From an uncultured Bordetella sp. (lineage in GTDB: Bacteria > Pseudomonadota > Gammaproteobacteria > Burkholderiales > SG8-41): a stretch of DNA of 64,000 nucleotides. Below the pieces are notes generated by a model that saw only the letters and a program-made list of their open reading frames with translations, made no database searches and was not told the DNA's origin. The DNA lies in contig CAZHFZ010000003.1 in NCBI GenBank assembly GCA_964531455.1, positions 26,372 to 90,371 on the forward strand. The letters are read 5' to 3'. The number at the start of each line of letters is the position of its first letter. Position 1 is the stretch's first letter. Made by a program: the position numbers and the translations under genes. Of this stretch, positions 6,901-35,197 are shown piece after piece.

Positions 6901-6903
6901 TGC

Positions 6904-7410: not shown

Positions 7411-7805
7411 CTGGATATCTCCCGAAAAAAGTGGGTAGTCGTCCGTCATTCGTTGCCTCTGCAAAAACCAAACAGCGCCAGCATGCTGAAGGACAGGTAG
7501 TGCATATTGCGCTGCAACCAACGGGGCGGATCAAAACAACTATGCCTTGGCGGGCGACTACGCGAATCCGGCCGCATCAATACGAGATTCAGCCCGCGCC
7601 GCACAAGCGCTGCCAACGCCTGAGTCACTATGGAACCATGACTGTGGAAATCGACAATCACCTTGGGCACACGAATCGCCGTCAATGGCGATGTATAGGA
7701 TATAGAGCTGGCTAATCCCATGAAAAGCAGATTATTTTGTTGTCATCATCCCAAAAAAACGGATAATTGATCCAGCGCAGTGCGAAATTCTCTTCAACAG
7801 CACCC

Positions 7806-14013: not shown

Positions 14014-15195
14014 CTACCCTCCGCTCTTCGCGAGCAGCAGTTCAAACTGTCGCTCCTCACCAAGGATGAATCCCGCAAATTCTTCCAAAGCCTCGGGCGT
14101 AATCGCCTTGGGTTCAATTTCATGCTCAAGAACACCAAAGTGCTCAACATTGATCGTGCGCAGATGGATGCGTCCGGATTCAAAATCCGCCTGCAGCAGA
14201 ACACTCGCCCTGACTTCGCACAAAAACATGAAGGTACTGCGCTCAACAAAGCCGCGGGCATTCAACGAATCCTTGGTCGTGTACTCTATCCTGTTCTCAG
14301 CCAGCAACTGCTTGAGTCGCTCATTTCTGGGGCTGTCGACAGTCGTCTGGATCTGCTTGTCGCCGGACAGGCGATAACTCAAAGTAACCCGATCAAACAA
14401 CTGCTTGCCGGGGGCCAATTGGCGCTTCTGGAAATCCACGCTGCCCGCCGACCACTTCAGTCCCGCGAAGTCCGGCACTCCAGTAAGCGGATAACCCTTG
14501 TCAAACGCTGGTTTGACCACGTTAAGCTGCTGCATCAATTCCTTCAGATATCCGAATGCGCGCTCCAGCGCCTCGCTGATACGATTGTTGACCTCATCAC
14601 TGTTGTCCTTTTTTTCCTCCAGCAACCTGGATTGCGCCAATTCCTTGAGGCGGGCCAATCGGCTGTTGGTGGTAATCGACGCAGACGCCTCCATGACCTC
14701 TTCATGGTGGACGGCTTGACTGGTTTCCATCTCCCTTATGAGATCCGCCAGAATGGCGAGTTCATCACCCGGTTGACTTACAAAGCTCAACCCCAGGTGG
14801 AATCCGGAGCCGGATGGCGACTTGCGTGAGGAAACAACGCGGGCGTGTGCCTTGATCACTTTTGGCCGTTCCTGGTCCTGCTTTAATGGCTGACCAAGCA
14901 ATACCGTCAGCAACGCCCCCATCTCGCCATCCTTTTCACTGATGATGGCGGCTCCCCCCAAAGACAAATCGATCGTTTGCGTATGCTGGATGATCGGCTT
15001 TCCATCAGGCGCAAGAAGCACAATGGCCACCTTCCAGTTTGCCGGATGACGCTTGAAACTTCTCCGATTATTTTTATTGTCCATGGCTTTTTTTGTTTCA
15101 AAGAATTCATGAAAGTAACAAATCCCGATGAATTCGGATAGCGCAAATATCAAGACTGTTGCCACTGGAAACCAGCGATACAGCAGGCGGGCCAA
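14014..15195 (-). CDS. Membrane-anchored PilZ-domain protein with coiled-coil and an unassigned ~230-aa C-terminal domain
   Basis: N-terminal TM helix (WFPVATVLIFALSEFIGICYF). Canonical PilZ motifs RRSFKR ... DLSLGGAAI. TTG start 12 nt after the stop of the upstream Hsp70-like gene. I recognise no motif in the C-terminal half. Confidence 0.8.
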   Translation of the reverse strand: MARLLYRWFPVATVLIFALSEFIGICYFHEFFETKKAMDNKNNRRSFKRHPANWKVAIVLLAPDGKPIIQHTQTIDLSLGGAAIISEKDGEMGALLTVLLGQPLKQDQERPKVIKAHARVVSSRKSPSGSGFHLGLSFVSQPGDELAILADLIREMETSQAVHHEEVMEASASITTNSRLARLKELAQSRLLEEKKDNSDEVNNRISEALERAFGYLKELMQQLNVVKPAFDKGYPLTGVPDFAGLKWSAGSVDFQKRQLAPGKQLFDRVTLSYRLSGDKQIQTTVDSPRNERLKQLLAENRIEYTTKDSLNARGFVERSTFMFLCEVRASVLLQADFESGRIHLRTINVEHFGVLEHEIEPKAITPEALEEFAGFILGEERQFELLLAKSGG

Positions 15196-15207
15196 TCAGT
15201 CATGTTT

Positions 15208-16650
15208 CTAGCTGAAAGTCCTGCCCGCACACAATCCCAGCCCTTTGCCGACACTACCAAGCATGTCGCCGGCTTTTAATGGAATCCCCGGGCCAACAAG
15301 GTCTGCAACCGCCGACCTGATCATTGGTGAAAACGCCATGCCCCCGGTCAGAAACACCACATCAGGTTTGCACCCTGCTGCGGCCAGGGCTTCAGCAGCC
15401 AAAGCGCCCACCTTGCTGACCAACCGGTCCGTCGCATCCAGAAATGATGCTCTCTTGACGACGACCTCAAGACCGTCCTCGATAAAACCCAGCGGCACAG
15501 CACACGACTCCTTTTGTGAGAGGGTTATCTTGGTTTGCTCCGCACCATGGACGATCCGGTATTGAAGCTGCTGCTGACAGACCTTGAGCAGCCTCATCCA
15601 TTTTTCAGGGAGTTCGGCTTGGGTTATCAATTCGCGGATTTCATGCTCAGCCCTGGCGAAACGGATCTGCGAGGGCAGGTTACGGATCGAAATGGCGTCA
15701 TGAACCAGTGAATGGGGCAAAGGCCGCCCGCTTTTGGCACAAGTGCTTTTTCCGAATGCAGGCATCAGCGAATGCCACGCCAGCGCCTCGTCAAAGTCGG
15801 TACCACCAATGCGGTCGCCTGAAACGCCCAGAATGTCCGCCAGCCTGTTGCGCTGATGCGCACGAGCGGGGCTCACGCGCATCATCACACAATCCGTAGT
15901 ACCGCCGCCGACGTCGATCACCAACAGCTTCTGTTCGTTGGCAATCGACATTTCATATTCGTAAGCAGCGGATACCGGCTCCAGCTCGAAACTGACATCC
16001 ATGAAGCCGGCACGTTCGGCGGCTCTTGCCATGACCTGCAGGGCCTGTGAATTACCTTGCTCGCCCATGGTACCGTGGTAACGCACCGGGCGCCCCAGGA
16101 CTGCCTGATTGATTTCACAAGACGCAACGGCTTCAGCACGCCTTTTGATGTGCCCGAGCATCGCGGTAACGATGTCTTCAAAGCGTGAAAGGTGATTCTC
16201 GTGAATATCGCTCCCGAGGAAGGATTTGGGAGAACGCACCAGAACGCCTCCCAGCGGATCACTGAAATAAGCACGGAGCGCTGCGTTACCGTAAATAATC
16301 GCCTGACCATTATCCAGCATGGAAAAGAATGACTGATCCCAGTAGGCTTTTTCCGCCTCGTTCAGTGATTCCCGCCGCATCGCATCCTGGATAACGCGCT
16401 CCAGTTCCAGGTCATCCAGGGCTGCAACTCCGCTTGCCTTGTTTCTGATCTGCTCTGCACGAGCGATGCGAAAGCGCTTTTCAAACTCCCCATTCTCGAT
16501 TTGCCCGAGGGCGATTTCACGCCGGGCAGTAAAAACAATTGACGGCATCGTGAGTTCATCGCCATCCAGCGGAACCGGGGAAATCCGGCCTTGATCGGCC
16601 ACATATGCCGTGCAATTCGACGTGCCGAAATCAATACCTATAGAAGCCAC
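15208..16650 (-). CDS. yegD: YegD-type Hsp70-family (actin-fold) ATPase lacking a substrate-binding domain
   Basis: IGIDFGTSNC (phosphate-1), VRSPKSFLG, LVIDVGGGTTDC (phosphate-2), IGGTDFDEALA, FLTGGMAFSPMIR (adenosine). Colinear with E. coli YegD as recalled. 480 aa. Confidence 0.85.
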   Translation of the reverse strand: MASIGIDFGTSNCTAYVADQGRISPVPLDGDELTMPSIVFTARREIALGQIENGEFEKRFRIARAEQIRNKASGVAALDDLELERVIQDAMRRESLNEAEKAYWDQSFFSMLDNGQAIIYGNAALRAYFSDPLGGVLVRSPKSFLGSDIHENHLSRFEDIVTAMLGHIKRRAEAVASCEINQAVLGRPVRYHGTMGEQGNSQALQVMARAAERAGFMDVSFELEPVSAAYEYEMSIANEQKLLVIDVGGGTTDCVMMRVSPARAHQRNRLADILGVSGDRIGGTDFDEALAWHSLMPAFGKSTCAKSGRPLPHSLVHDAISIRNLPSQIRFARAEHEIRELITQAELPEKWMRLLKVCQQQLQYRIVHGAEQTKITLSQKESCAVPLGFIEDGLEVVVKRASFLDATDRLVSKVGALAAEALAAAGCKPDVVFLTGGMAFSPMIRSAVADLVGPGIPLKAGDMLGSVGKGLGLCAGRTFS

Positions 16651-20128: not shown

Positions 20129-20289
20129 CTTTTTAGTTCCCCGGTCAAAACAGCTGGTGTGCGGAAAGTGCTTTGTTATACTTAAATCGGCATCCGTAGT
20201 TTGGACCCATTACCGCAATCCCAGTACTGCATGTGCAGCATCCGAAATCAATCGCTCGATTTTACCCGAGCTCAAGAGGAACATCCGGC

Positions 20290-21255
20290 ATGAGAACAAT
20301 CGGCAGGCTCTTCATCATTCCCTTACTCGCGTTTGCCAGCGCTGCATCATTCGCGCAGACCTACCCGACCAAAGCCGTGCGCCTGATTGTCCCGTTCCCG
20401 CCCGGTGGCAGCACCGACCTGGTTGCGCGCGTCATCGGACAGAAAATGGCCGATTCCTGGGGAAAACAGGTAGTGATTGACAACCGTCCCGGTGCCAACG
20501 GCATGATCGGTTCAGACATTGTCGCCAAAGCCAATCCGGACGGTTACAGCATCGTGCTCGGCACCATCGGCCCGATGGCCATCAATGCGAGCCTCTACAA
20601 GATGCCTTATGACATCATCAAGGACCTCGCGCCGATCAGCTACACGGCGAACATTGCAAATGTGCTGGTGGTAAACCCGACACTTGCCGCGAAAGATGTC
20701 CGCGAAATGATCGCCCTCGCCAGAACCCGCCCCGGACAACTGACCTTTGGCTCCAGCGGCACCGGTGGCGCCCCGCACATGGCCGTCGAGCTGTTCAAGT
20801 TGCTGGCCAAAGTCAACATTGTTCATGTGCCCTACAAGGGCGGTGGCCCCGCCATGGCCGATCTGGTCAGCGGCCAGATCTCCGGCAGCTTCGCAAGCAT
20901 GCCTTCGGCAATTGGCTTCATAAAATCCGGAAAGTTGCGCGCGCTTGGGGTCAGCGGCAGCAAACGTTCGCCGGCCTTGCCAGAGGTGCCTACCGTGTCC
21001 GAAGCCGGTGTCAGCGGATTTTCCGTACTCGACTGGCAAGGCCTGTTCACCACGGCGAAAACACCGCCGGAAATCGTCAACAAACTCAATTCTGAAACCG
21101 TACGCATCCTGGCATTGCCGGATGTGGTTGACCGACTCACTGCGGCCGGCGTTGATATTCAGACAACCACGCCCAAGGCCTGGGGCGATTTCGTTGCTGC
21201 TGAAATTTCCAAATGGGGAAAAGTGGTCAAGGAAGCTGGCGTCAAGGTTGAATGA
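20290..21255 (+). CDS. Bug/TctC-family periplasmic binding protein
   Basis: ATG 20290 after AGAGGA. Signal peptide. YPTKAVRLIVPFPPGGSTDLVAR. Confidence 0.9.
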   Translation: MRTIGRLFIIPLLAFASAASFAQTYPTKAVRLIVPFPPGGSTDLVARVIGQKMADSWGKQVVIDNRPGANGMIGSDIVAKANPDGYSIVLGTIGPMAINASLYKMPYDIIKDLAPISYTANIANVLVVNPTLAAKDVREMIALARTRPGQLTFGSSGTGGAPHMAVELFKLLAKVNIVHVPYKGGGPAMADLVSGQISGSFASMPSAIGFIKSGKLRALGVSGSKRSPALPEVPTVSEAGVSGFSVLDWQGLFTTAKTPPEIVNKLNSETVRILALPDVVDRLTAAGVDIQTTTPKAWGDFVAAEISKWGKVVKEAGVKVE

Positions 21256-21382
21256 GGCCTCGTGGCAAGACCAGTTTTTCAAAATAAATACTTGATTTTA
21301 TTGATGTATTTTTTTATTGCGCAGCTACGCATTTAGCAATGGCAGCCAAAACAATAAAAACCGAATAATCAGGAGGATTGCA

Positions 21383-22378
21383 ATGATTGAAGGACAGCAA
21401 CACTTCAAAACATACCTTGCCCGCGCACTGCTGGCTGCAACGGTGCTGATGGCAACTACAGGCAGTGCTCACGCCGCGGAGACATTTCCAAACCGGCCCG
21501 TACGTTTCATTGTCACCTTCCCGCCAGGCGGCGGGCTTGACTTAATGTCTCGCATCGTCGGCAGAACCCTCACTGACACCTGGGGACAACAGGTCATCAT
21601 CGATAACCGCATCGGCGCAGGCGGTACCATAGGCACAGCACTGGCGGCCAAGGCTGCGCCGAATGGCTACACCCTGCTTTTTGTATCGTCATCACACGCC
21701 ATCAATCCGGCGGTCTACCGCAAACTGCCTTACGACACCGAAAAAGAGTTCGTCCCGATCACCTTGACGACGCTCGCGCCGCACCTGCTGGTAGTGCATC
21801 CGTCTTTTCCGGCCAATACACTGAAGGAACTCATTGCACTGGCCAAGGCCAAGCCGGGCACGATTGCCTATGTCTCCGGCGGAGTCGGTTCGTCAACGCA
21901 TCTGGCAGGGGAATTGCTGAAGTCGATGGCTGGCATTGATCTGCTGCACGTGCCGACCAAAGGCACCGGTCCGGCCGTTACGGAAATACTGTCCGGCCGA
22001 ATCCCCATTACGATTGCCACAGTTCCATCGGTTCTGAATCACGTCAAAGCCGGAAAACTGCGCGCGCTGGGCCTGACTTCGACACGGCGCTCTGCCAGCG
22101 CCCCGGAGTATCTGCCGATCGCCGATCAGGGCGTCACCGGCTACGAGGCTGCAAGCTGGCATGGCGCCCTCGCACCACGCGGGTTGCCGGAGAATCTGCT
22201 CAAGCAATTGAACCGCGACATCAACGCCGCGCTGCTCCAGGATGCCAACAAGGATCGCCTGCTGCGCGAAGGGCTCGAAGTTGTGGGCAGTACGCCGCAG
22301 CAGTTCGCGACGCAGATCAGCACCGAGATCAAACGCTGGAAAAAAGTCGTTGAAACTGCGGGAATTCCAGTCGAGTAA
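21383..22378 (+). CDS. Bug/TctC-family periplasmic binding protein
   Basis: ATG 21383 after AGGAGG. Signal peptide ...SAHA. FPNRPVRFIVTFPPGGGLDLMSR. Confidence 0.9.
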   Translation: MIEGQQHFKTYLARALLAATVLMATTGSAHAAETFPNRPVRFIVTFPPGGGLDLMSRIVGRTLTDTWGQQVIIDNRIGAGGTIGTALAAKAAPNGYTLLFVSSSHAINPAVYRKLPYDTEKEFVPITLTTLAPHLLVVHPSFPANTLKELIALAKAKPGTIAYVSGGVGSSTHLAGELLKSMAGIDLLHVPTKGTGPAVTEILSGRIPITIATVPSVLNHVKAGKLRALGLTSTRRSASAPEYLPIADQGVTGYEAASWHGALAPRGLPENLLKQLNRDINAALLQDANKDRLLREGLEVVGSTPQQFATQISTEIKRWKKVVETAGIPVE

Positions 22379-22527: not shown

Positions 22528-23502
22528 ATGAAACCATCTGCTCGCGCTTCCTGCATCCCCTTGCTGGCCGCAGCCATGCTGTGTGCGGTGCCAGCTCATG
22601 CCCAGACCTACCCCGCAAAACAGGTACGCATGATCGTACCGTTTCCACCTGGAGGCATTTCAGACACTCTGGCCCGTGTAACCGCTCAGCAATTGAGTGA
22701 GTCGCTATCCCAGCAGTTCGTCGTGGACAACCGGCCTGGCGCCGGTACCACACTCGCAGCGGACATCGTTTCAAAAGCACCGCCTGACGGGTATACGCTC
22801 TACTTTACCGACGTGACAACCCACGCGATCAACGCCTCGCTGTATTCAAAATTACCGTTTGATCCGGTGAAAGACTTCACTGCCATCTCCCTGGTCGCGC
22901 AAACCCCGTTGGTGCTGGTTGTTCACCCGTCGATGCCGGTGAAGTCGGTAGGCGATCTGATTGCACTGGCCAAATCGAAGCCCGATGCCATCGTCTATGC
23001 GTCATCCGGCAACGGCACCATCATTCATCTTGCAATGGAAGCCATACGCGCCCAGGCTGGCATCAAAATGGTGCACGCGCCCTATAAAGGGAGTGCGCCT
23101 GCGGCAGCCTCCGTCCTTAGCGGCGAGACTGCGGCCTCCTACACTACAACGCCCGCAGCGCTGCCCTATACAAAAACCGGCCGTTTGCGGGCGATTGGTG
23201 TCAGCAGCGCCAAACGCTCACCCATCCTGCCCGATGTGCCGGCGATTGGCGAAACCTTGAAGGGATACGACATTATTCTTTACAGCGGCCTGTTCGCACC
23301 GGCCGGCCTTGCACAGGGCATCACCACCAGACTCAACACCGAGGTTGGAAACATGCTCAAACTGCCGAAGGTGCAGGAACAGTGGGCCCGTTACGGCGCA
23401 GCGCCGGTAAGCATGACGCCCGCACAAGTCACTGAACACGTGAGGTCCGAGATCAGCAAATTCGCGGTCGTGGTGAAAGCCTCCGGCGCGCGTATCGATT
23501 GA
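22528..23502 (+). CDS. Bug/TctC-family periplasmic binding protein
   Basis: Signal peptide ...PAHA. YPAKQVRMIVPFPPGGISDTLAR. Confidence 0.9.
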   Translation: MKPSARASCIPLLAAAMLCAVPAHAQTYPAKQVRMIVPFPPGGISDTLARVTAQQLSESLSQQFVVDNRPGAGTTLAADIVSKAPPDGYTLYFTDVTTHAINASLYSKLPFDPVKDFTAISLVAQTPLVLVVHPSMPVKSVGDLIALAKSKPDAIVYASSGNGTIIHLAMEAIRAQAGIKMVHAPYKGSAPAAASVLSGETAASYTTTPAALPYTKTGRLRAIGVSSAKRSPILPDVPAIGETLKGYDIILYSGLFAPAGLAQGITTRLNTEVGNMLKLPKVQEQWARYGAAPVSMTPAQVTEHVRSEISKFAVVVKASGARID

Positions 23503-23506
23503 TTGC

Positions 23507-23528
23507 AGGCGGCACATTCGTGCCGCCT
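23507..23528. terminator. Hairpin between convergent genes (possible bidirectional terminator)
   Basis: Stem AGGCGGCAC/GTGCCGCCT (9 bp), ATTC loop. Sits between stops at 23502 (+) and 23534 (-). Confidence 0.45.
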
Positions 23529-23533
23529 CTACT

Positions 23534-25168
23534 TCATACCGTTTCCGGCACCATCTCGATCGCGCCGCAAGGGCATTCCGCTGCACAGACGCCACAGCCC
23601 TTGCAGTAGTCGTAGTTGAACTGGAAACGCTTGCCGGCACCGAGCTTGATCACGGCATTGTCAGGACAGACGCCGTAACAGTTGTCGCATTCGAAACAGT
23701 TTCCGCAACTCAGGCAGCGCCGTGCTTCGAACAAGGCATTGTCCTCCGTCAAGCCGCCCTGCACTTCGTCGAAGCTGCTGGTCCTGCGGGCAATTTCCAG
23801 TTGCGGCCGCACCGTCTTCGGTGCGTCGCTGTAATACCAGGTATTGATGCGCTCAAAACTTGCCGGCGCGTGTTTCGAGGCAAGCACCGGCACCACACCG
23901 CGCAGCCACGCGTCGATATGCCGCGCCGCTTTTTTGCCATGTCCCACTGCAACGGTCACATTGCGTTCCGCCGGCACCATGTCGCCGCCCGCAAAAAGCC
24001 CGGCATGTCCGGTCATCAACGTTGCCGGATCAACCTGCACCACGCCATCCTTGATTTCCAGCCCGGGCACGCCTTCAAGCAGCGACAGATCGACATCCTG
24101 TCCCAAAGCCAGAACCAGCGAGTCAGCCTCCAGCGTTTCGAGCTCACCGGTGGGTTGCGGATTGCCCTTTTCATCAAGAACCATTTTTTCGATGGTCAAT
24201 GCACCTTCATTCGCCTGACGGATGGTCGACAGCCATTTCACCATCACGCCCTCCTGCAGCGCTTCCTCCACCTCAAAATCATGTGCGGGCATGCGTTCAC
24301 GGGTGCGGCGGTAAACAATGATGGCCTCAGTCGCACCCAGGCGTTTTGCCGTTCGCGCGACGTCAATAGCCGTATTTCCTCCGCCGTAAACCACTACCCG
24401 GCGGCCAAGCATCGGCTTGTCTTCGCCCTCCATTGACCGCAACACCGCAACGGCGTCAAGGATGCGCGAAGAATCCTTGGCCGGTATATACGCCCGTTTG
24501 GCGATATGCGCACCGACTGCAAGAAAAGTCGCGTCAAATACGCCTTCACGCATGGCATCAAGGATATTGGCGACACGGGCATTCAATTCAACTTTCACGC
24601 CCATCGCCATCACACGCTTCATTTCAGCTTCCAGCACATCCCGCGGCAGCCGGTATTTCGGGATCCCGAAACGCATCATGCCGCCGAGCAGCGGGCCGGC
24701 CTCTTTCACTGTGACTCGATGCCCTAACCGGCGCAGATGGTAAGCCGCTGACATGCCCGACGGCCCCGCCCCCACCACCAGCACATGTTTTCCGGATTCT
24801 TTTTCGGGTGGCTTGAACTGCCAGCCGCGCTTCAGGGCCTCATCGCCGAGAAAACGTTCCACCGAATTGATTCCGACGGCCGCATCAATCTTGCCGCGAT
24901 TGCAGGCACCCTCGCAGCTGTGATAACAGACGCGCCCCATGATTGCCGGAAACGGATTGTCACGGGTCAGGTGATGCCAGGCGGCCTCGTAGTCACCACT
25001 TTCCGCCTGGAACAGCCAGCCCTGAATGTCCTCACCGGCTGGGCACTGCGCATTGCACGGTGGCAGCCGATCCACATACACCGGGCGTTCGGTGCGCCAG
25101 GTTCCGGTCTTGTTGGCCAGTGACGATCCAGGATCCAGGGTAATCGCAAACGGTTTCTGCATGGTCAT
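23534..25168 (-). CDS. GltD-like NAD(P)H flavoprotein fused to a 2x[4Fe-4S] ferredoxin (delta-subunit-like) of a 2-oxoacid oxidoreductase
   Basis: N-terminal Cys cluster. VLVVGAGPSGMSAAYHL and VVYGGGNTAIDVAR dinucleotide folds as in the glutamate synthase small chain. C-terminal CLSCGNCFECDNC...CKGCGVCAAECPCG. ATGA overlap with the beta subunit. Confidence 0.8.
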   Translation of the reverse strand: MTMQKPFAITLDPGSSLANKTGTWRTERPVYVDRLPPCNAQCPAGEDIQGWLFQAESGDYEAAWHHLTRDNPFPAIMGRVCYHSCEGACNRGKIDAAVGINSVERFLGDEALKRGWQFKPPEKESGKHVLVVGAGPSGMSAAYHLRRLGHRVTVKEAGPLLGGMMRFGIPKYRLPRDVLEAEMKRVMAMGVKVELNARVANILDAMREGVFDATFLAVGAHIAKRAYIPAKDSSRILDAVAVLRSMEGEDKPMLGRRVVVYGGGNTAIDVARTAKRLGATEAIIVYRRTRERMPAHDFEVEEALQEGVMVKWLSTIRQANEGALTIEKMVLDEKGNPQPTGELETLEADSLVLALGQDVDLSLLEGVPGLEIKDGVVQVDPATLMTGHAGLFAGGDMVPAERNVTVAVGHGKKAARHIDAWLRGVVPVLASKHAPASFERINTWYYSDAPKTVRPQLEIARRTSSFDEVQGGLTEDNALFEARRCLSCGNCFECDNCYGVCPDNAVIKLGAGKRFQFNYDYCKGCGVCAAECPCGAIEMVPETV

Positions 25169-26160
25169 TGCGCGTCCTCCAGCAATCCGAAACGCCTGAT
25201 ATTGCGATCAGCCTTCGCCTGTATTAATTCCAGTACATGCGGATTTGCTTTGGCAGCAAAAACATGGGCAAAGCGTTTTTGCGGCCGCAAGTATTCTTCA
25301 ACCGGCACACGGTGACGGATTTTGGTGACTGCGGTAACTTCGCCGCGCTCGGCCTCGAACACCGGGAACAGCCCGGTTTCCCGGGCCAGACGCGCCAGTT
25401 TGATCGTGTCCTGGCTCGCCGCACCCCAACCCAGAGGACAGGGCACCAGAATGTGCAGGTAACGCGCACCGTGCATGGTCATTGCCCGCTCGACCTTGGC
25501 TTCGAGATCGCGCAAATCCGCAACAGTGGCTGTGGCAACGTAGGGAATTTCATGCGCCATGGCAATCAGCGGCACGTTTTTTCCCTGACCGAACAGCGCA
25601 CCCGGGTCCGTGCCGACCGCCATGGTCGTTGCAGTACGCGCGGCCGGCGGTGTCGCCGAACTGCGCTGGACACCCGTGTTCATATAGGCCTCGTTGTCGT
25701 AACAAATGTAAAGCACGTCATCGTTACGCTCGAACATGCCCGACAGACAGCCGAATCCGATGTCTGTCGTACCACCATCACCGCCCTGCGCAATCACCCT
25801 GACGTCGTGACGTCCCTTGACCTTCATCGCGGCTGCAATTCCGGTACCCACTGCGGCGGCGTTGCCAAACAGCGAATGAATCCACGGCAGCTGCCATGAG
25901 GTTTCGGGATATGGTGTTGAAAACACCTCCAGACAACCCGTCGCATTGGCGGCGATCAACTGGCCTTTGGTCGCGCGCATCGCCGCGTCAACGGCATATC
26001 GGGCACCCAGCGCCTCCCCGCATCCTTGGCAGGCACGGTGCCCGGAGTTCAGCGAATTGCTGCGTTCCAGCGAGGACTGAACGCTGCGTTGCTCCGGCGA
26101 CAACAGGCGATTGCCGACAGTAAAAGTGCCGGTCTGGTAAAACTTGATGGGGGCAGTCAT
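25165..26160 (-). CDS. 2-oxoacid:ferredoxin oxidoreductase beta subunit (TPP-binding)
   Basis: CQGCGE, GGDGGTTDIGF (TPP/Mg motif). Start ATG 26160 lies 1 nt after the alpha stop (longest ORF reaches 26196). Confidence 0.85.
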   Translation of the reverse strand: MTAPIKFYQTGTFTVGNRLLSPEQRSVQSSLERSNSLNSGHRACQGCGEALGARYAVDAAMRATKGQLIAANATGCLEVFSTPYPETSWQLPWIHSLFGNAAAVGTGIAAAMKVKGRHDVRVIAQGGDGGTTDIGFGCLSGMFERNDDVLYICYDNEAYMNTGVQRSSATPPAARTATTMAVGTDPGALFGQGKNVPLIAMAHEIPYVATATVADLRDLEAKVERAMTMHGARYLHILVPCPLGWGAASQDTIKLARLARETGLFPVFEAERGEVTAVTKIRHRVPVEEYLRPQKRFAHVFAAKANPHVLELIQAKADRNIRRFGLLEDAQ

Positions 26161-26161
26161 G

Positions 26162-27415
26162 TCAGTGCACCTTGGAAGCGACGGTACCGACATCACGCAG
26201 CAGATTCTCGGCGATCGGTCCGCTGCGCCGCGTTGCGGCCTCCCGCTCCAGTTGCCGGTTGACGATGCGCCAATCGAGATCCATGAAAGTCAGCGGCTGC
26301 AGTTTGTCGGCGATGGCATCGCGCAAGGTCCGGACCAACGAAGCTTTGGTAATGGCGCGACCGCCGAGTCCTGCAACGACGGTGTAACCATGCAAATGCA
26401 GACCTGACAGTGCCAGCCGCACATCTGTGGATACCACTCCGCCCAGACCAACGGAAAAACTTTTCTCCAGAACAACTACGCGCTTGGCCCCCTGCAATAC
26501 GCCACGAACCGCAGCCAGTGGAAACGGCCGGAAGGAATGGATACCCATCACACCGACTTTCTGCCCGTCGTTGCGCAACTCATCCACGGTATCCTTCAGC
26601 GTACCCAGCACTGATCCCAGTGCGACCACGATGGTCTCAGCATCCTCACAGCGGTAGCCGCGCACCAGCCCCCCCGAATTACGACCAAAACGCTGGGCAA
26701 ATTCAGCAGCAATCTCCGGTATGCGCTCCAGCGCCATCGTCTGTTTGGCATGCGCCAGATAACGCACTTCCATGAAGGCTTCGGGACCCACCATGGCACC
26801 GATGGAAACCGGATCTGCGGGATCCAGCACTTGACGCGGCTCATATACCGGCAAAAATGCATCCACTTCAGCCTGTGCCGGCATGTCAACACGTTCGTAG
26901 GCATGGGTCAGGATGAAACCATCCATGCAGACCATCACCGGCATCGACAACTCCTCACCGAGTTTGAACGCCTGAATATGCAAATCAAGCGCCTCCTGAT
27001 TGCTCTCGGCAAACAGCTGAATCCAGCCGCAGTCGCGCTGACTCATTGAGTCGCTGTGGTCGTTCCAGATATTGATCGGCGCGCCGATGGCCCGATTGGC
27101 CACGGTCATCACGATGGGCAAACCGAGGCCCGATGCGTTGTAGATGGCCTCGGCCATGAACAGCAAACCCTGACTCGCCGTTGCGGTGTAGCTGCGCGCA
27201 CCGGCAGCCGAAGCGCCGATCGCCACGCTCATCGCGGAAAATTCGCTTTCGACATTGATGAACTCGCAGGGATTGAGTTCACCGCTTTTCACCAGTTCAC
27301 CGAGCCCTTCGACAATATGAGTCTGAGGGGAAATCGGATAAGCGCAGATCACTTCGGGCCGGCATAACGCAACAGCCTCGGCCACGGCGCGCGAGCCTTC
27401 AATCTGCTTTTGCAT
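26162..27415 (-). CDS. 2-oxoacid:ferredoxin oxidoreductase alpha subunit
   Basis: GSRAVAEAVALCRPEVICAYPISPQTHIVE N-terminus typical of PorA/KorA. 417 aa. Confidence 0.85.
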   Translation of the reverse strand: MQKQIEGSRAVAEAVALCRPEVICAYPISPQTHIVEGLGELVKSGELNPCEFINVESEFSAMSVAIGASAAGARSYTATASQGLLFMAEAIYNASGLGLPIVMTVANRAIGAPINIWNDHSDSMSQRDCGWIQLFAESNQEALDLHIQAFKLGEELSMPVMVCMDGFILTHAYERVDMPAQAEVDAFLPVYEPRQVLDPADPVSIGAMVGPEAFMEVRYLAHAKQTMALERIPEIAAEFAQRFGRNSGGLVRGYRCEDAETIVVALGSVLGTLKDTVDELRNDGQKVGVMGIHSFRPFPLAAVRGVLQGAKRVVVLEKSFSVGLGGVVSTDVRLALSGLHLHGYTVVAGLGGRAITKASLVRTLRDAIADKLQPLTFMDLDWRIVNRQLEREAATRRSGPIAENLLRDVGTVASKVH

Positions 27416-27989
27416 GGCTCAGCTCCATTAATTCGTTCTTGATGTATTCATAAGCCTCGGCGGCGGCGGCAACATTGCCGTCAGCCACTTTTCCGCTGAA
27501 CTTGTCGCGTATGGCATGTGAAACGGCATCGAGCGTGATCAATCCCGACAATGCAGCGAACCCGCCCAACAGAACGGCATTGGCCATCGGGCGTCCCAGG
27601 TGCTTCATCGCAATCTCAGTCGCAGGCACATTGGTCAGGCGCTCATGGCGGAAACGCTGCGTAATGTCGCCGACACCCAGTTCATCAAAACTGCGCGTAC
27701 TGTTGATCAGCACATAACCGTCGGGGTTCAATCCCTGGAAAACATCGACCTGATGTAGCAGCGTGGGGTCCTGGATGATCAGCACATCCGGCGCGAGAAT
27801 GGGTTCACGCAACCGGATCTCGCGGTCATCGATACGGCAAAAGGCAACCACAGGCGCACCTGTGCGCTCCGAACCGAAACTGGGAAACGCCATGGCATGG
27901 CGACCCTGCTCGAATGCGGCAATCGACAGCATCTCTGCCGCCGTCACCACCCCCTGCCCTCCACGACCGTGAAATCGCACTTGCAGCAT
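27399..27989 (-). CDS. 2-oxoacid:ferredoxin oxidoreductase gamma subunit
   Basis: RFHGRGGQGVVTAAEML..FPSFGSERTGAPV gamma-subunit signature. RBS GGAGGAG upstream. 17-nt overlap with alpha. Confidence 0.85.
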   Translation of the reverse strand: MLQVRFHGRGGQGVVTAAEMLSIAAFEQGRHAMAFPSFGSERTGAPVVAFCRIDDREIRLREPILAPDVLIIQDPTLLHQVDVFQGLNPDGYVLINSTRSFDELGVGDITQRFRHERLTNVPATEIAMKHLGRPMANAVLLGGFAALSGLITLDAVSHAIRDKFSGKVADGNVAAAAEAYEYIKNELMELSHAKAD

Positions 27990-28048: not shown

Positions 28049-28062
28049 TTGATCTGAATCAA
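28049..28062. promoter_or_regulatory. Perfect FNR/CRP-family box TTGATCTGAATCAA upstream of the oxidoreductase operon
   Basis: Read directly. Centre is about 66 nt upstream of the gamma-subunit ATG (27989), compatible with a class II (-41.5) site and a short leader. Confidence 0.6.
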
Positions 28063-28133: not shown

Positions 28134-28559
28134 TTATTTGACCAGGGTGACCGGCACTTTCGCCAGATGGATCACTTTTGTGGCAATCGAGCCCAGAACC
28201 AAAGCGCCCAGCATGCCCATGCCACGGGTGCCCATGATGATTGATGAACATTTGAGGCGGCGCGCAGTTGCGGCGATCTTCTCAGCCGTATCTCCGACCA
28301 CCATATGCACTTTGAATTTGGCCTTGGCCGCCTCCAAGGCGGTCACTCCACGCTTGAGAATGGCATCGGCACGCTTGTTCATGATCTGCCGGCGCTGGTG
28401 CTCTGAAATGTAGGCACCCACCATGCCATAGTCATCAAATGCCGGAACCACATGAAGCAGATGAATGGTCGTTTGACCCTGTTCCGCCTCCTGAATCGCG
28501 AACTTCACGGCACGCAGGGAATTCGACGATCCGTCTACCGGCACCAGTATATTTTTCAA
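28134..28559 (-). CDS. Universal stress protein (UspA family)
   Basis: KNILVPVDGSSNS...IIMGTRGMG...VPVTLVK. TTG 28559 preceded by GGAGGA. Longest ORF starts at ATG 28604, but the N-terminal extension has no Usp homology. Confidence 0.8.
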   Translation of the reverse strand: MKNILVPVDGSSNSLRAVKFAIQEAEQGQTTIHLLHVVPAFDDYGMVGAYISEHQRRQIMNKRADAILKRGVTALEAAKAKFKVHMVVGDTAEKIAATARRLKCSSIIMGTRGMGMLGALVLGSIATKVIHLAKVPVTLVK

Positions 28560-28634
28560 TGTTCCTCCAGAATTTACGAAATATGAGTATCGGGCGTTGA
28601 CCATCGAATCTAGACGCTGCCAGCAAAACCGGCT

Positions 28635-28648
28635 TTGACAGTAATCAA
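28635..28648. promoter_or_regulatory. Near-consensus FNR-type box TTGACAGTAATCAA in usp/antiporter divergent region
   Basis: Read directly. One mismatch to TTGAT-N4-ATCAA. Centre is about 82 nt from usp TTG 28559 and about 53 nt from GTG 28695. Confidence 0.45.
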
Positions 28649-29639: not shown

Positions 29640-30143
29640 TTACAGGGTCGCGATGATAAATTCGGGAATGGCCTTCAGTCTGAGGTAACGGGAGACCACG
29701 GCAGCAGGAAGACGGGCGACATTGGCAATGACTTGCCGGCAATTGCGTTCTCCGCAGTTACATTTCATGGTCCAGATATCATCGGCGCCGAGCTGGGTCG
29801 AATAATCGTGGGTGACTTCCCGGCCAACCGCAATTCTCTTGAGCGCGCGCAACTGCAATCCGCTTGCCGTCCGCACGAGGCGTGAATTCGGATTGCATGA
29901 GTGATTGGAAAAAGCGCCAATCTCGCCCTCAGGATCGAGATAGAGTTCAGTGTCATAACGGTAACAATTTGCACCGCGCTGTGGATCCGTTTTCCAATAC
30001 CCCCAGACGGTTTTCGGCGTAACAATGCGGCCACGAACGCGACAGATCAGATCATCCGGCTGAAAAGCGCGCAAGGCGACAAGGCCGAGTCCGTTGCGTA
30101 CCGGACGCACGACCAGCGATTTCCCATATTTCAATTGAACCAC
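29640..30143 (-). CDS. SET-domain protein (putative protein-lysine methyltransferase)
   Basis: NHSCNPNS pseudoknot motif, REVTHDY, post-SET Cys cluster CNCGERNC. 167 aa. GTG start (TTG 9 nt downstream is possible). Confidence 0.8.
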   Translation of the reverse strand: MVQLKYGKSLVVRPVRNGLGLVALRAFQPDDLICRVRGRIVTPKTVWGYWKTDPQRGANCYRYDTELYLDPEGEIGAFSNHSCNPNSRLVRTASGLQLRALKRIAVGREVTHDYSTQLGADDIWTMKCNCGERNCRQVIANVARLPAAVVSRYLRLKAIPEFIIATL

Positions 30144-30369: not shown

Positions 30370-31344
30370 TCAATCCACCTGGATTTTGGCGTCCTTGACC
30401 ACTTTAGTCCATTTCGCAATTTCATTAATGATGTATTTTTTGAATTCTTCAGGCGGAATACCGCCGATTTCAGAACCCTCAGACAGCAGTCGCCCCTGCA
30501 GATCCGGCTCATTAAGAGCCTTCACGATTTCCTTGTGCAGCCGGTCTATGATCGGCTTGGGCGTCTTGGCTGGCGCAACCACGCCCTGCCAGGATGTTGC
30601 TTCGTAGCCTGGAACTGCATCGGCTATCGGCGCAGCCTCTTTCCATGAAGCGAGGCGACGCTTGCTTGTTACACCAAGAATCCGCAATTTGCCTGCCTTC
30701 GCCTGGGTGATCGTGATCGCCGGCTGCAGGAAAGTCATTTGCACCTGTCCAGCCAGCAGTTCAGTCACCGACTGACCTGACCCCTTGTACGGCACATGAA
30801 CCATGTCGATTCCCGCCATGGTACGGAACAACTCCATGGCCAGATGCGACCCGCCGCCAGCCCCCGAAGAAGCGAAGTTGAGCTGCCCCGGCCGGCTCTT
30901 GGCCAGCGCGACAAACTCTTTGACCGAATTGGCCGGCACCGTCGGATGTACGACCATGAAGTAAGGATTTGATGCCGTCAGGGTGATCGGCGAAAAATCG
31001 CGGATCGGGTCATACGGCAGTTTTGCCTTGGTTGCGACATTCGTGGCCAGCGTGCTGATGGTCCCGAAGAAAATCGTGTAGCCATCGGGCGGCGCTTCCT
31101 TGGCCATTGTCGCCGCAATCAGTCCGGCTCCACCGGCGCGATTGTCAATGATGATTTGCTTGCCCAGTGTCACGCTGAGTTTTTGTCCAAGCGCCCGGGC
31201 CATGATGTCTGTTGGCCCGCCAGCAACAAAAGGAACGATAGCGCGTATGGGCTTGGTGGGATATTCCTGCGAGTGTGCAAGGCCGGAAATCAATGCGCTT
31301 GCGGTCAAAGCAGCGAGTGCCCCAAAACTTGAAATGGATGTCAT
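30370..31344 (-). CDS. Bug/TctC-family periplasmic binding protein
   Basis: ATG 31344 (MTSISSFGALAALTASA... signal peptide). YPTKPIRAIVPFVAGGPTDIMAR. The 231-nt upstream ORF extension is not protein-like. Confidence 0.9.
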   Translation of the reverse strand: MTSISSFGALAALTASALISGLAHSQEYPTKPIRAIVPFVAGGPTDIMARALGQKLSVTLGKQIIIDNRAGGAGLIAATMAKEAPPDGYTIFFGTISTLATNVATKAKLPYDPIRDFSPITLTASNPYFMVVHPTVPANSVKEFVALAKSRPGQLNFASSGAGGGSHLAMELFRTMAGIDMVHVPYKGSGQSVTELLAGQVQMTFLQPAITITQAKAGKLRILGVTSKRRLASWKEAAPIADAVPGYEATSWQGVVAPAKTPKPIIDRLHKEIVKALNEPDLQGRLLSEGSEIGGIPPEEFKKYIINEIAKWTKVVKDAKIQVD

Positions 31345-32214
31345 CAAATTACCTGTAAACGGCTTGATAAATATTAAAAAAAAGAATTGCTGAAAAAATA
31401 TAACTGCAATTGATTGTAACTGAAAACCCCGGGAATACCGCCGCACATCAATGGTGCAACAAGCTCTAATGTGGTGCGATAAATTCAGATCATCTTCACC
31501 CCGTGCACCCGTCGTCAGCGTGCAATTCGGCGCCCGCAGATCGCTTAACAACAAGAGCCGCAGCCATCGTTGCAAGCCATGGACTCGCGATATTCCGCGC
31601 TCGCAGTCCTTTCTGAGACATTCAAAACATCACTTCAGTTCAAACGCATGAAAGACGAAATGGTGTTGAGCAGGGTTTGAAACCGGAACAATGGAAGCAT
31701 CAACAAAATGCTGAAGATCCTCATGCGGTTGGTAATACCGAAGTCGCATCACCCACATTTACCGGCGCTGAAACAGCGTGGAATAATCGCGGTAAATTTC
31801 GCGGCCTGCAGCACGAGTTTTGCGCCCATGCAGTTTCAGTAATTACCTGTAAATCGTGTCCAACTGCTCAACCCGCTGAAATGACGGTCCCAGACGCTGA
31901 ATTCACTTTCCGGACCGCTCTATTGCGGGCGACGCCATAAGCAAAACGGTTATCGCCGCAGCGGCGGCCGATCTGCCGTCAGCCCCAAACCGTTTGGGCG
32001 CTGAAAGCCCGACACCGAAACCGGCAAGCAGTTCGCCGCGCCGTAACAATCACAACTTGACGATACTCAATCCACTGCGCACCGGGGCCGCGCTGAATGA
32101 TTTGCCTTAACGCAGATGAATGCAGGGCGAATTTGCAGTCACCACAGATCTAATAAATATAATTTAAAACAATGACTTACAATGCATCTACTATGATTTC
32201 CACAAATCACCAAC

Positions 32215-34110
32215 TCAGTCCTTAAGTGCACCGCGGATCTGCTCCAGCGCGGCCGGATCCTCAATTGTCGTCAGATCGCCCGGGTCCCGGCCTTCGGCCA
32301 ATGCCTGCAAGGAACGCCGGAGCAATTTGCCCGAGCGTGTTTTCGGCAACGAATTCACAAACAGCACGCGTCGCGGCCTTGCGATTGCACCAAGTTGATG
32401 ATCAACGGCATTCATAATCTCCTTTTCCTGCCGGTCGCGTTCGGCTGCGGTATTCAGCCTGGATGCGTCTTTTACTACAGCGAATGCGAGGGGCATCTGC
32501 CCCTTCAATGCATCAGCCACCCCAACAACGGCTACTTCAGCAATATTGGAATGGGATTGCACGGCCTCTTCGATCTCGCGGGTTCCGATGCGATGACCGG
32601 CAACGTTGATCACGTCGTCCGTACGGCCCAGGATAAAGGTGTAGCCGTCTTTGTCACGAACCCCCCAATCGAAGGTTGAATAGAGCAGCAGCTTCGGGAA
32701 AGTCCTGAAGTAGGTATTGACGAACCGATCATCGTCACCCCACACGGTAGTCATGCAACCAGGTGGCAGCGGCGGTGCAATGGTCAACACCCCCTTCTCT
32801 CCCGCTGCAGTTTCGGTCGCATCGCTTTCACGCAACAGTTTCAGGTCATAACCGTAAACCGGAAAACCCGGGCTGCCATATTTGACATCGGCTTTTTCAA
32901 TACCCGGCGCCAGCGAGAGGATCGGCCAGCCGGTTTCGGTCTGCCAGTAATGATCGATCACCGGTTTGCCGATGGCGTCGTGTAACCAGCGATGCGTGGG
33001 CTCATCCAGCGGTTCTCCGGCGAGAAACAGATGACGCAGCGAGGACAGGTCGTATTTCTTGAGGTATGCCGGATCCTGTTTCTTCAACACCCGCGCCGCC
33101 GTCGGCGATGAAAACATCACTGTGACCTTCTGCTCCTGCACGATTTTCCACCAGATCCCTGCATCAGGACGGATCGGCAAACCTTCATACAGAATGGTGG
33201 TCATGCCATGAATCAGCGGACCATAAACAATGTAGGAATGTCCGACAACCCAGCCCACATCGGAGGTGGTGAACATGGTCTCACCGGGTTTGCCGCAATA
33301 GATGTGCTGCATCGAACTCGCCAGCGCGACAGCATAACCACCGGTATCGCGCTGCACGCCCTTGGGCTTGCCCGTGGTGCCTGAGGTATAGAGAATATAA
33401 GACGGATCGCTGGATTCCAGCCAGGTTACCGGCACCCGGGTATCGCCATGCAGTTTGATCTGCTCGGCGTAATCAACATCGCGCCCCTGCACCATCCTGA
33501 AATCCCTGTCGATGCCGCGATTGACCACCAGCACCTTTTGCGGGGGATATTTGGCCAAGTCTATGGCCTCATCCACCAGAGGCTTATAGTGGATGGCCTT
33601 GCCGCCGCGCAAACCGGCGTCGGATGTAATAATCAGTTTCGGCCTGGCATCATCAATGCGCGAGGCGCAACTCGCTGCGGCAAATCCGCCAAACACCACG
33701 GAATGCACTGCACCCAGGCGTGCGCAGGCAAGCATCGCAAACGCTGCCTCGGGGATCATCGGCATGTAAATCAGCACGCGGTCGCCTCGTCCCACACCCT
33801 GCGCTGCGATTACAGCAGCACAGGCGTTTACCGCTGCATGCAGTTCACGGTAGGTATAACTGCGCTCAGCCCCGGTTTCGCTGGAGATGTAGATCAGTGC
33901 AGGCTGGTCGCCACGGACGTCAAGATGCCGGTCAACCGCGTTGTAACAGAGATTGGTTAAACCGCCGACGAACCACTTGGCAAATGGCGGCTTGCTGAAA
34001 TCAAGCACCTGGTCAAATGGACGGTGCCAGTGAATGCGCTGCGCCTCTTCCGCCCAGAACGCTTCACGATGTTCGATGGAACGACGATGAAAATCGGCGT
34101 AAGCGCCCAT
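32215..34110 (-). CDS. prpE: Propionate--CoA ligase (propionyl-CoA synthetase)
   Basis: 631 aa, colinear with enteric PrpE: FWAEEAQRIHW, YTSGTTGKPKGV, LPKTRSGKLLRR, GRDPGDLTTIEDPAALEQIR. Confidence 0.85.
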   Translation of the reverse strand: MGAYADFHRRSIEHREAFWAEEAQRIHWHRPFDQVLDFSKPPFAKWFVGGLTNLCYNAVDRHLDVRGDQPALIYISSETGAERSYTYRELHAAVNACAAVIAAQGVGRGDRVLIYMPMIPEAAFAMLACARLGAVHSVVFGGFAAASCASRIDDARPKLIITSDAGLRGGKAIHYKPLVDEAIDLAKYPPQKVLVVNRGIDRDFRMVQGRDVDYAEQIKLHGDTRVPVTWLESSDPSYILYTSGTTGKPKGVQRDTGGYAVALASSMQHIYCGKPGETMFTTSDVGWVVGHSYIVYGPLIHGMTTILYEGLPIRPDAGIWWKIVQEQKVTVMFSSPTAARVLKKQDPAYLKKYDLSSLRHLFLAGEPLDEPTHRWLHDAIGKPVIDHYWQTETGWPILSLAPGIEKADVKYGSPGFPVYGYDLKLLRESDATETAAGEKGVLTIAPPLPPGCMTTVWGDDDRFVNTYFRTFPKLLLYSTFDWGVRDKDGYTFILGRTDDVINVAGHRIGTREIEEAVQSHSNIAEVAVVGVADALKGQMPLAFAVVKDASRLNTAAERDRQEKEIMNAVDHQLGAIARPRRVLFVNSLPKTRSGKLLRRSLQALAEGRDPGDLTTIEDPAALEQIRGALKD

Positions 34111-34207: not shown

Positions 34208-35197
34208 TTACAAAATCCTGACCACTGCTCGGCCGCGGATTTCACCTTTGATCATGCGCTCGAAATACCCCGGCAAATCAGCCAGGCCAATCGTATGGGC
34301 TATGGATTCAAGATGTCGCGGCTTGAGATCAGTGGCCAGCCGCTCCCAGACTTTTTTGCGTAGCGTCATCGGTGTCGCCACCGAATCAACGCCGATCAGC
34401 CGTACGCCGCGCAGGATGAACGGCAGCACATTGGTTTTGAGATCGATGCCGCCGGCATTGCCGAAGCTGCCGATGACGCCGTGAGGCTGCATGGTACGCG
34501 TCAGCCATCCGAGCTGATCACCGCCGACGGAATCAAAGGCGGCAGCCCAAAGCGGCTTTTCCAGCGGACGCGTGCCGAAATCCACAGTAGCGCGATCGAG
34601 AATTTCCGCAGCGCCCAGTTCGCGCAAATAATCATGCTCCGCGGTCTTGCCGGTAATCGCCGTCACCGCATAACCCTTTGCGGCCAGCATGTCGATGGCA
34701 AGACTGGCCACGCCGCCAGTGGCTCCGTTGACCAGGACCTTGCCGCCCGCCGGCGTCATGCCGTTCAACTCGAGCAACTCCACCGCCAGGCCTGCCGTGT
34801 AACCGGCTGTGCCCAGGGCCATGGCTTCAAACAGGGACAGCCCCTTGGGCAAGGGCACGACCCAGACAGCAGGAACGCGGCAAAGCCCGGAATATCCGCC
34901 GTCATGGGCCACACCCATGTCGTAGCTGGTGCAGAGAATTTCATCGCCGGGCTTGAACCGCGCATCACTGGAACTGAGTACCGTGCCGGCTGCGTCAATG
35001 CCGCCGATCAGCGGAAAGTTGCGGATGATTTTTCCGCCGGCCCCAGTCGCGGCCAATGCGTCCTTGAAGTTGACGCTGGAATACGCCGTCTGGAACACCA
35101 CCTCGCCACGGCCGATATCCGCCGTCGGCACTTCGACGACATCACCTTCTATCTTGTTGTTTTCATTGAATATTCTGTAGGCCTTGCAGTGTTCCAT
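34208..35197 (-). CDS. acuI: YhdH/AcuI-type acrylyl-CoA reductase (MDR superfamily)
   Basis: SSVNFKDALAATGAGGKIIRNFPLIGGIDAAG, NGATGGVAS, PFILRGVRLIGVDS. Colinear with E. coli YhdH. Confidence 0.75.
   Translation of the reverse strand: MEHCKAYRIFNENNKIEGDVVEVPTADIGRGEVVFQTAYSSVNFKDALAATGAGGKIIRNFPLIGGIDAAGTVLSSSDARFKPGDEILCTSYDMGVAHDGGYSGLCRVPAVWVVPLPKGLSLFEAMALGTAGYTAGLAVELLELNGMTPAGGKVLVNGATGGVASLAIDMLAAKGYAVTAITGKTAEHDYLRELGAAEILDRATVDFGTRPLEKPLWAAAFDSVGGDQLGWLTRTMQPHGVIGSFGNAGGIDLKTNVLPFILRGVRLIGVDSVATPMTLRKKVWERLATDLKPRHLESIAHTIGLADLPGYFERMIKGEIRGRAVVRIL

Follow-up and report, generated by a model that had tools for sequence, protein, structure and literature searches.

Analysis of a 64-kb stretch of an uncultured Bordetella sp. 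genome (contig CAZHFZ010000003.1; in the following called the window, always at its full length) revealed an operon at positions 23534–27989 of the minus strand that encodes a 2-oxoacid:ferredoxin oxidoreductase (OFOR) with a flavoprotein module inside its ferredoxin subunit. As read from the list of open reading frames (ORFs) and from the junctions, four translationally coupled minus-strand genes code for a PorC-like gamma, a PorA-like alpha and a PorB-like beta subunit and for a fourth protein of 544 aa, here denoted delta*. The four proteins very probably form one NAD(P)-linked OFOR. On balance, we favour the narrower assignment, drawn from the sequence, that the operon codes for an FNR-controlled, anaerobically induced pyruvate:NADP+ oxidoreductase.

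The gamma gene (196 aa, 27399–27989) overlaps the alpha gene (417 aa, 26162–27415) by 17 nt (ATGCAAAAGCAGATTGA), a single nucleotide separates the alpha stop from the beta ATG (TGA-C-ATG), and the beta gene (331 aa from ATG, 25165–26160) shares an ATGA overlap with the fourth gene (23534–25168); translational coupling of the latter two is therefore indicated. The close packing described in the initial annotation could thus be confirmed by reading the sequence. Every one of the four starts is preceded by a Shine-Dalgarno-like ribosome-binding site of the GGAG/AAGG type. The longest ORF of beta begins at GTG 26196, upstream of ATG 26160, and this longer start is probably not used. Assignment by hidden Markov models (HMMs), which had been proposed as a check, was carried out and yielded high-scoring Pfam matches far beyond chance for all four proteins. 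A Por-type set was confirmed with POR (147 bits) for gamma, POR_N (232 bits) and PFOR_II (91 bits) for alpha and TPP_enzyme_C (65 bits) for beta, and the fourth protein contains Fer4_20 (residues 36–115), Pyr_redox_2 (128–411) and a Fer4 dicluster (490–539).

PorD sequence was found at both ends of the fourth protein. The C-terminal ~55 residues match NCBIfam PorD_Arch with 80.7 bits and the PorD_KorD subfamily model TIGR02179 with 73.5 bits (cut-off 60). In a search of solved structures, a composite of residues 1–37 and 480–544 aligns to residues 3–83/85 of the PorD chain 9bt4_G (E 3e-21), with PFAITLDPGSSLANKTGTWRTERPVYV pairing with PIGGTCEPGSTLANKTGGWRNFRPVYI of 9bt4_G. Residues 1–37 (25058–25168) correspond to the PorD N-terminal arm, residues 38–483 (23720–25057) to a GltD/NfnB/DsrL-like insert with linker, and residues 484–544 plus stop (23534–23719) to the motif RCLSCG followed by the PorD-type 2×[4Fe-4S] domain. 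The fold of the latter covers residues ~490–544, so that about 450 residues lie between arm and fold. Conservation was judged from an alignment of 58 representatives with 36–59% identity, obtained by searching 1.84 billion cluster representatives; the arm motif TGxWRxxxP is retained in 50–57 of these 58 diverse relatives. Because the arm and dicluster halves of PorD flank the module, the fourth protein reads as a PorD with an inserted flavoprotein module, which is more than an end-to-end fusion. The initial annotation had described a delta-ferredoxin fused to a GltD-like flavoprotein. Its domains are correct, and the simple N-terminal fusion in front of PorD is replaced by a module that sits inside PorD.

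The insert shows the features of a GltD-like module, namely an N-terminal two-cluster domain, a GxGxxG motif for flavin adenine dinucleotide (FAD) and a GGGNTAxD motif for NAD(P)H. Residues 33–495 match the GltD-like domain of the StnABC/NfnABC large subunits (9bov_A, E 1e-92; 8oh5_C, E 8e-84) and further NfnB (5jca_L, E 1e-67), glutamate synthase beta and dihydropyrimidine dehydrogenase (DPD). On proper alignment, both dinucleotide motifs (GAGPSG 133–138 and GGGNTAID 262–269) are present and invariant in the 58 relatives. The whole protein matches the NCBIfam 'NAD(P)-binding protein' model NF009410/PRK12771 with 771 bits over residues 4–542 (cut-off 516). An AlphaFold2 model from a 60-sequence alignment forms one compact body (pLDDT, the predicted local distance difference score, 93.2; pTM, the predicted TM-score, 0.90). 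With Foldseek, StnC/NfnABC subunits were the top matches of this model with query TM-scores (TMq) of 0.79–0.80 (9bov_A 0.80), followed by NfnB, GltD and DPD with 0.65–0.68.

Sixteen potential cluster ligands are invariant in the 58 relatives: C38, C42, C81, C85, C89, E104, C485, C488, C491, C494, C497, C501, C522, C525, C528 and C532. Among the cysteines of the fourth protein C534 alone varies. By sequence, these 15 Cys and Glu104 would be enough for four [4Fe-4S] clusters. Eight of the cysteines form the PorD-type motifs (C491, C494, C497, C501 and C522, C525, C528, C532). The insert supplies the Cys/Glu ligands for one full cluster and two of the four ligands for a second, and the first CxxC found in canonical GltD is missing from its N-terminal domain. 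C42/C81/C85/E104 are the counterparts of the ligands of the flavin-proximal GltD cluster, in which the non-Cys ligand is Glu in NfnB and glutamate synthase (GltS), Gln in DPD and Lys170 in StnC (PMC10482914, PMC8097209). The invariant RCLSCG (484–489) just before the PorD motif also occurs in StnC and DsrL, and by analogy the distal cluster would be bound by C38/C89/C485/C488. As to the nucleotide, the stretch VYRRTRERMPA aligns with the YRRT motif of 9bov_A and of StnC, whose structure has NADPH bound (PMC10482914). YRR is retained in about 40 of the 58 relatives. Because this motif matches NADPH-binding relatives, we consider NADP(H) the probable nucleotide of the complex.

The following electron path can be proposed. 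Pyruvate would be decarboxylated on thiamine pyrophosphate (TPP) in the alpha/beta active site with release of acetyl-coenzyme A (acetyl-CoA), and two electrons would exit singly via the [4Fe-4S] cluster of beta. They would cross the PorD-type clusters (C491/494/497/532 and C501/522/525/528) and subsequently the two GltD-type clusters, the distal C38/C89/C485/C488 and the flavin-proximal C42/C81/C85/Glu104, to be gathered on FAD and transferred as hydride to NADP+. This linear chain of TPP, five [4Fe-4S] clusters, FAD and NADP+ would bypass free ferredoxin. The predicted net reaction, pyruvate + CoA + NADP+ → acetyl-CoA + CO2 + NADPH, would be effectively irreversible because it is strongly exergonic. 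Similar to ordinary pyruvate:ferredoxin oxidoreductase (PFOR), the PorD N-terminal arm would dock delta* on alpha/beta.

The plain reaction wastes about 180 mV, the flavin-proximal Glu ligand is invariant as in NfnB and GltS in contrast to the Lys of StnC, and Arg173 aligns with NfnB Arg201. All three would suit a FAD that bifurcates or confurcates electrons and couples NADP(H) to the low-potential TPP site and a putative high-potential partner. Glu104 and Arg173 are both also present in non-bifurcating relatives. A bifurcating OFOR of this kind would let facultatively aerobic Betaproteobacteria make pyruvate from NADPH, that is, fix CO2; in reverse, the low-potential electrons of pyruvate would push extra NADPH formation or allow an Nfn-like energy saving. 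We regard bifurcation as very unlikely in either direction. A Glu ligand is also known from non-bifurcating glutamate synthase (PMC8097209), and the predicted cofactor chain is linear. The top fold matches belong to the non-bifurcating StnC class, in which the GltD-like domain sends NADPH electrons linearly along Fe-S clusters (PMC10482914). Further, neither an NfnA/PyrK-like (FAD/[2Fe-2S]) nor any other partner gene is found in the operon or its conserved neighbours, the rest of the genome not having been searched for an NfnA-like one.

That the fourth gene belongs with the Por subunits, as initially annotated, is borne out by synteny as well as by the PorD halves. Of 80 related loci, 65 carry the complete set of four genes, and the remainder are truncated contigs with the exception of two loci, L009 (see below) and L037, which has a 1.7-kb gap. 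A 50%-identical relative shows the same arrangement as this operon. In a 43%-identical relative (L081, 5475–9961) the order is gamma-delta*-alpha-beta, so that delta* occupies the canonical porD slot of the usual gene order porC-porD-porA-porB (PMC13768988). In L083 (2554–6958), two fused genes make up the system, one for gamma-delta* (755 aa) and, after it, one for alpha-beta (707 aa). LarA-like (Lar_N) and Ldh_2 genes adjoin this two-gene system and hint at a lactate/pyruvate context. Two relatives without the TGxWR arm are not located beside OFOR genes (short contigs). In the 96.6%-complete genome investigated here neither a stand-alone PorD nor a second strong OFOR was found besides this operon; the only PorD-type match above cut-off is the C-terminus of the fourth protein.

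Alternatively, the fourth gene might be unrelated in function to the OFOR and code for a DsrL-like or glutamate-synthase-like reductase that merely lies downstream. It falls into the same NCBIfam, NF009410, as DsrL, shares 31% identity with the DsrL of a dsr cluster, and one orphan copy exists (L009). Against this stand the PorD-specific sequence at both ends, the translational coupling by the ATGA overlap, the distant relatives in the porD slot or fused to gamma, the lack of another PorD in the genome and the lack of dsr genes in the window. We find this explanation hardly credible. Because the model also captures DsrL, membership of NF009410 does not fix the function; the name 'NAD(P)-binding protein' covers two functionally distinct subfamilies. 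An example of the second is the 666-aa DsrL gene at 5880–7880 (minus strand) of L087 (G108:C1:1844000-1858000), which scores 732 bits and lies in a dsrMK-L-JOP-N-AB cluster.

The substrate was approached by ranking HMM scores. For alpha, NCBIfam PorA_Arch leads with 466 bits before VorA (310), PadG (279) and the oxalate model (258), and for beta PorB leads with 331 bits before VorB (278), oxalate (221) and PadI (189). Gamma reaches 216 bits with PorC (equivalog cut-off 225) and 199 bits with the PorC_KorC subfamily model TIGR02175 (cut-off 81). The best solved relative of both catalytic subunits is an archaeal four-subunit PFOR (9bt4_B for alpha, E 1e-116; 9bt4_C for beta, E 4e-86), followed by oxalate oxidoreductase and, more distantly, by single-chain PFORs. 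Beta contains the TPP-binding GDG...N motif, aligned with 9bt4_C, and four Cys for one [4Fe-4S] cluster; its CxxC, TGC and PCP cysteines align as well. Alpha carries the YPISP motif, Arg108, equivalent to Arg114, the residue that binds pyruvate in the D. africanus enzyme, and the pocket stretch APINIWNDH, which is identical in 9bt4_B. Among the 80 loci no general conserved flanking gene exists beyond the four genes. Pyruvate phosphate dikinase follows downstream in nine Accumulibacter-type loci and malic enzyme in nine others. Because of the HMM ranking, the alpha pocket residues and the pyruvate-enzyme neighbours in other genomes, we consider pyruvate the likely substrate. The earlier view that specificity cannot be read from the sequence was therefore too cautious in part, as these three lines of evidence favour pyruvate, and holds in so far as they do not make it certain.

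Regulation was assessed from the upstream region. A box of the FNR/CRP family, TTGATTCAGATCAA, at 28049–28062 precedes the gamma start by about 60 nt. It is a perfect TTGAT-N4-ATCAA palindrome and the sole perfect match in the window. Within 250 nt upstream of gamma in 63 orthologous loci, a perfect box was found in 6 and a box with at most one mismatch in 15, compared to 0.1% and 1%, respectively, of random 250-nt pieces. Most boxes are positioned at −70 to −78 or −95 to −107 from gamma. Directly upstream of the operon lies a universal stress protein gene (28134–28604, minus strand; Pfam Usp 116 bits) with its own FNR-type box containing one mismatch (TTGATTACTGTCAA, 28635–28648). By its sequence, this gene is possibly co-regulated with the operon in the same low-oxygen response.

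The genome contains narG, two aceE copies and polyhydroxyalkanoate (PHA) synthase genes (phaC), and at 96.6% completeness no NiFe hydrogenase was found in it. This setting fits a facultative nitrate respirer that would induce the enzyme under oxygen limitation. The term 'anaerobe-type' used in the initial annotation agrees with the predicted FNR-type control in a nitrate-respiring, facultative organism. An FNR-type regulator would turn on the operon when oxygen becomes limiting. At that point pyruvate dehydrogenase is held back by NADH, and ferredoxin electrons would find no hydrogenase to accept them. One of the aceE matches (G000:C11:10774-13422), situated 1 kb from the gene of a class I PHA synthase (14426–16018), has an in-frame TAG, which may point to a pseudogene or to a mistake in the assembly.

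The lack of a hydrogenase also speaks against the possibility that free ferredoxin or flavodoxin is still the main acceptor and the insert a side valve, a regulatory or protective element that, for instance, keeps the clusters reduced, or a built-in ferredoxin:NADP reductase for other users. The PorD clusters are the normal docking site of ferredoxin. In Accumulibacter UW-1 the three catalytic genes of the orthologue, CAP2UW1_2510-2512, were treated as a highly expressed, laterally acquired PFOR that feeds ferredoxin and hydrogen (PMC5148189), a study in which the fourth gene (L041, 6001–7623) is not mentioned. We consider this possibility unlikely. All cofactor ligands and nucleotide motifs of the insert are strongly conserved, the related DsrL and StnC modules are true entry or exit points of NAD(P)H, and the compact AlphaFold2 model, computed for the fourth protein alone, gives little reason to expect a bypass.

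Several observations weigh against a pyruvate:NADP+ oxidoreductase under FNR control. The assignment of C38/C89/C485/C488 to one cluster draws on conservation and analogy. The nucleotide may vary across the family because YRR is missing in about 30% of its members. L009 (6001–7647), from a Methylibium metagenome-assembled genome, carries an 85%-identical fourth gene that is flanked by porin and ABC-transporter genes and has no por gene in the surrounding 6 kb; it may be an orphan or a mis-joined contig. The Accumulibacter-type loci lack the FNR box. In alpha the pocket Thr is replaced by Ser (Ser29 for Thr31), the single change among the pocket residues examined. The subfamily cut-offs of TIGR02175 and TIGR02179 are exceeded and the equivalog cut-offs of PorA, PorB and PorC are all missed (466 < 550, 331 < 405 and 216 < 225), so that specificity for pyruvate is not certain; models of the 2-ketoisovalerate type score only moderately lower than Por.

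The latter points leave room for the same NAD(P)-linked complex acting on another 2-oxoacid, be it 2-ketoisovalerate or a further branched-chain acid, an aryl-2-oxoacid such as phenylglyoxylate, or 2-oxoglutarate. Besides the missed Por cut-offs, the scores of VorA (310 bits) and VorB (278 bits) are not negligible, and known NAD(P)-linked bacterial OFORs use 2-oxoglutarate or phenylglyoxylate. An orthologue-like cluster of R. ferrireducens, Rfer_2184-87, was annotated as phenylglyoxylate:acceptor oxidoreductase (PMC2755013). A different substrate is nevertheless rather unlikely in our view, given the match of the alpha pocket to the solved PFOR 9bt4, the pyruvate enzymes as neighbours in other genomes and the lack of aromatic-degradation genes beside the operon in the window. 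A phenylglyoxylate:acceptor oxidoreductase was rejected with the Pad equivalogs far below their cut-offs (PadE 156/300, PadG 279/700, PadI 189/700), and so was a Kor/Oor-type 2-oxoglutarate enzyme for the catalytic subunits (33–122 bits versus cut-offs of 364–579).

Close homologues of the fourth protein with 86–98% identity are abundant in metagenomes, where they are named '2-oxoacid:acceptor oxidoreductase delta subunit' or 'glutamate synthase beta-like'. At least 80 species genomes contain an orthologue with an identity of 77% or more, among them Comamonadaceae, Rubrivivax, Caldimonas, Ramlibacter, Dechloromonas, Propionivibrio, Sideroxydans, Casimicrobiaceae and Candidatus Accumulibacter. 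Within the genus, 8 of 25 genomes carry an orthologue. Order-wide, the NF009410 cut-off is exceeded in 100 of 401 genomes, a total that includes the ~660-aa DsrL class and was therefore rejected as a measure of prevalence. Counting by eye the matches with a span of ~1.6 kb and more than 743 bits results in an estimate of about 42 of 401 genomes (~10%). Most genomes of the genus, this one excepted, also contain a ~632-aa paralogue (e.g. G002:C4:3042-4844) with ~375–385 bits for NF009410, below the cut-off.

Neither the PFOR-diversity review of November 2026 (PMC13768988) nor the 2021 review on Fe-S flavoenzymes (PMC8097209) mentions a GltD-type module in a PFOR, and in the literature searched no prior biochemical description of the PorD-inserted module was found. 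The design is common in Betaproteobacteria and seems biochemically uncharacterised so far. PFORs are commonly regarded as suppliers of ferredoxin pools, hydrogenases or nitrogenase. If NADP+ is indeed reduced directly, a widespread group would be misread in metabolic models, roughly 10% of the sampled genomes of the order, with Comamonadaceae, Rubrivivax, Dechloromonas, Propionivibrio, Sideroxydans and Candidatus Accumulibacter among those concerned. For Accumulibacter, an NADPH-producing pyruvate step would bear directly on the long debate about where the reducing power for anaerobic PHA synthesis in phosphorus-removing sludge comes from. The enzyme would also be a compact bacterial counterpart of the eukaryotic pyruvate:NADP+ oxidoreductase. 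In addition, it offers a clean case of a ferredoxin subunit with a spliced-in redox module, with a possible use in engineering NADPH supply from pyruvate.

Downstream of the operon, a GC-rich hairpin (GGCGGCAC-GAAT-GTGCCGCC, 23508–23527, minus strand) begins 7 nt past the stop of the fourth gene, before a convergent TctC gene, and is likely a terminator by its sequence. It was not listed in the terminator scan because it has no T-run. Four genes for periplasmic binding proteins of the Bug/TctC family surround the operon (20233–21255, 21317–22378 and 22528–23502, plus strand; 30370–31575, minus strand; Pfam TctC 205–232 bits), and no TctA/TctB genes were seen among the ORFs scanned. A 167-aa ORF (29640–30143, minus strand) contains a SET (lysine methyltransferase) domain (Pfam SET 46.7 bits), which is unusual in bacteria. 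The minus-strand genes of the propionate-CoA ligase PrpE (32215–34110, 1116 bits) and of an adjoining acrylyl-CoA reductase family (YhdH/AcuI-like) protein (34208–35197) represent a small propionate/acrylate module located in the interval from the operon to sucA-sucB-lpd (42045–36325). The latter genes, coding for the classical 2-oxoglutarate dehydrogenase complex, lie 8.3 kb from the operon start, so that the initial figure of about 10 kb was fair.

Compared with known systems, the operon is most similar in its catalytic part to the four-subunit PFOR 9bt4. Alpha, beta and gamma match, the TPP motif, the cysteines of the beta cluster and the pocket residues are shared, and both the N-terminal arm and the 2×[4Fe-4S] fold of PorD are present. 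In contrast to the stand-alone delta subunit of ~85 aa, delta is split here by a ~450-residue insert with FAD, NAD(P)H and 2×[4Fe-4S] sites. The gene order gamma-alpha-beta-delta* differs from porC-porD-porA-porB (PMC13768988). The predicted acceptor is NADP+ instead of ferredoxin, and the scores remain under the equivalog cut-offs.

The fourth protein resembles DsrL, which we take to be the NAD(P)H:acceptor oxidoreductase of the Dsr sulfur system with sulfite reductase, not an OFOR, as its partner. Both exceed the cut-off of NF009410/PRK12771, are 31% identical over residues 29–539 and show the same layout of GltD-like core, linker, RCxSCGxCFECDNC...CP and C-terminal dicluster. Judged from the one DsrL compared, DsrL is longer (~660 aa versus 544 aa) and lacks the PorD N-terminal arm, YRR and a PorD HMM match. 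It is found among dsrMK-JOP-N-AB genes, whereas por, usp and TctC genes are the neighbours here. The best matches in sequence and fold are the StnC/NfnABC large subunits (8oh5_C, 9bov_A, 9n5u_A), with which the NADPH/FAD site including YRRT is shared. Their flavin is not bifurcating and electrons move linearly to further [4Fe-4S] clusters, as predicted for delta*. They differ as transhydrogenase subunits of ~950–1,180 aa with NuoG- or formate-dehydrogenase-like domains and by Lys or Cys at the flavin-proximal cluster instead of Glu104.

With regard to the predicted coupling, the 2-oxoglutarate:NADP+ oxidoreductase of Azoarcus evansii was reportedly described by Ebenau-Jehle et al. in 2003. The analogy to this enzyme drawn initially is real, as its GltD-like subunit is placed in the GltD-like tree in PMC10134865. 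By description, it is likewise an OFOR of the same bacterial class that reduces NADP+ via a GltD-like flavoprotein; its catalytic subunits are described as Kor-type, its substrate as 2-oxoglutarate and its flavoprotein as a separate subunit, unlike the arrangement found here. PadEFGHI, the phenylglyoxylate:NAD+ oxidoreductase, is also a Por-like, pyridine-nucleotide-linked OFOR of denitrifying Betaproteobacteria, but consists of five separate subunits, and with the proteins of this operon its equivalog models fall well short of their cut-offs. In Euglena and Cryptosporidium, pyruvate:NADP+ oxidoreductase joins a single-chain PFOR to an FMN/FAD module of the cytochrome-P450-reductase type. This enzyme shares the predicted net reaction and the covalent link of an NADP+-reducing flavoprotein to a PFOR, and differs in being eukaryotic and in a flavin module unrelated to GltD. 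NAD(P)-linked OFORs and modules of the GltD/DsrL type are known kinds, and what seems new in this operon, as judged from the literature searched, is the splicing of such a module into PorD.

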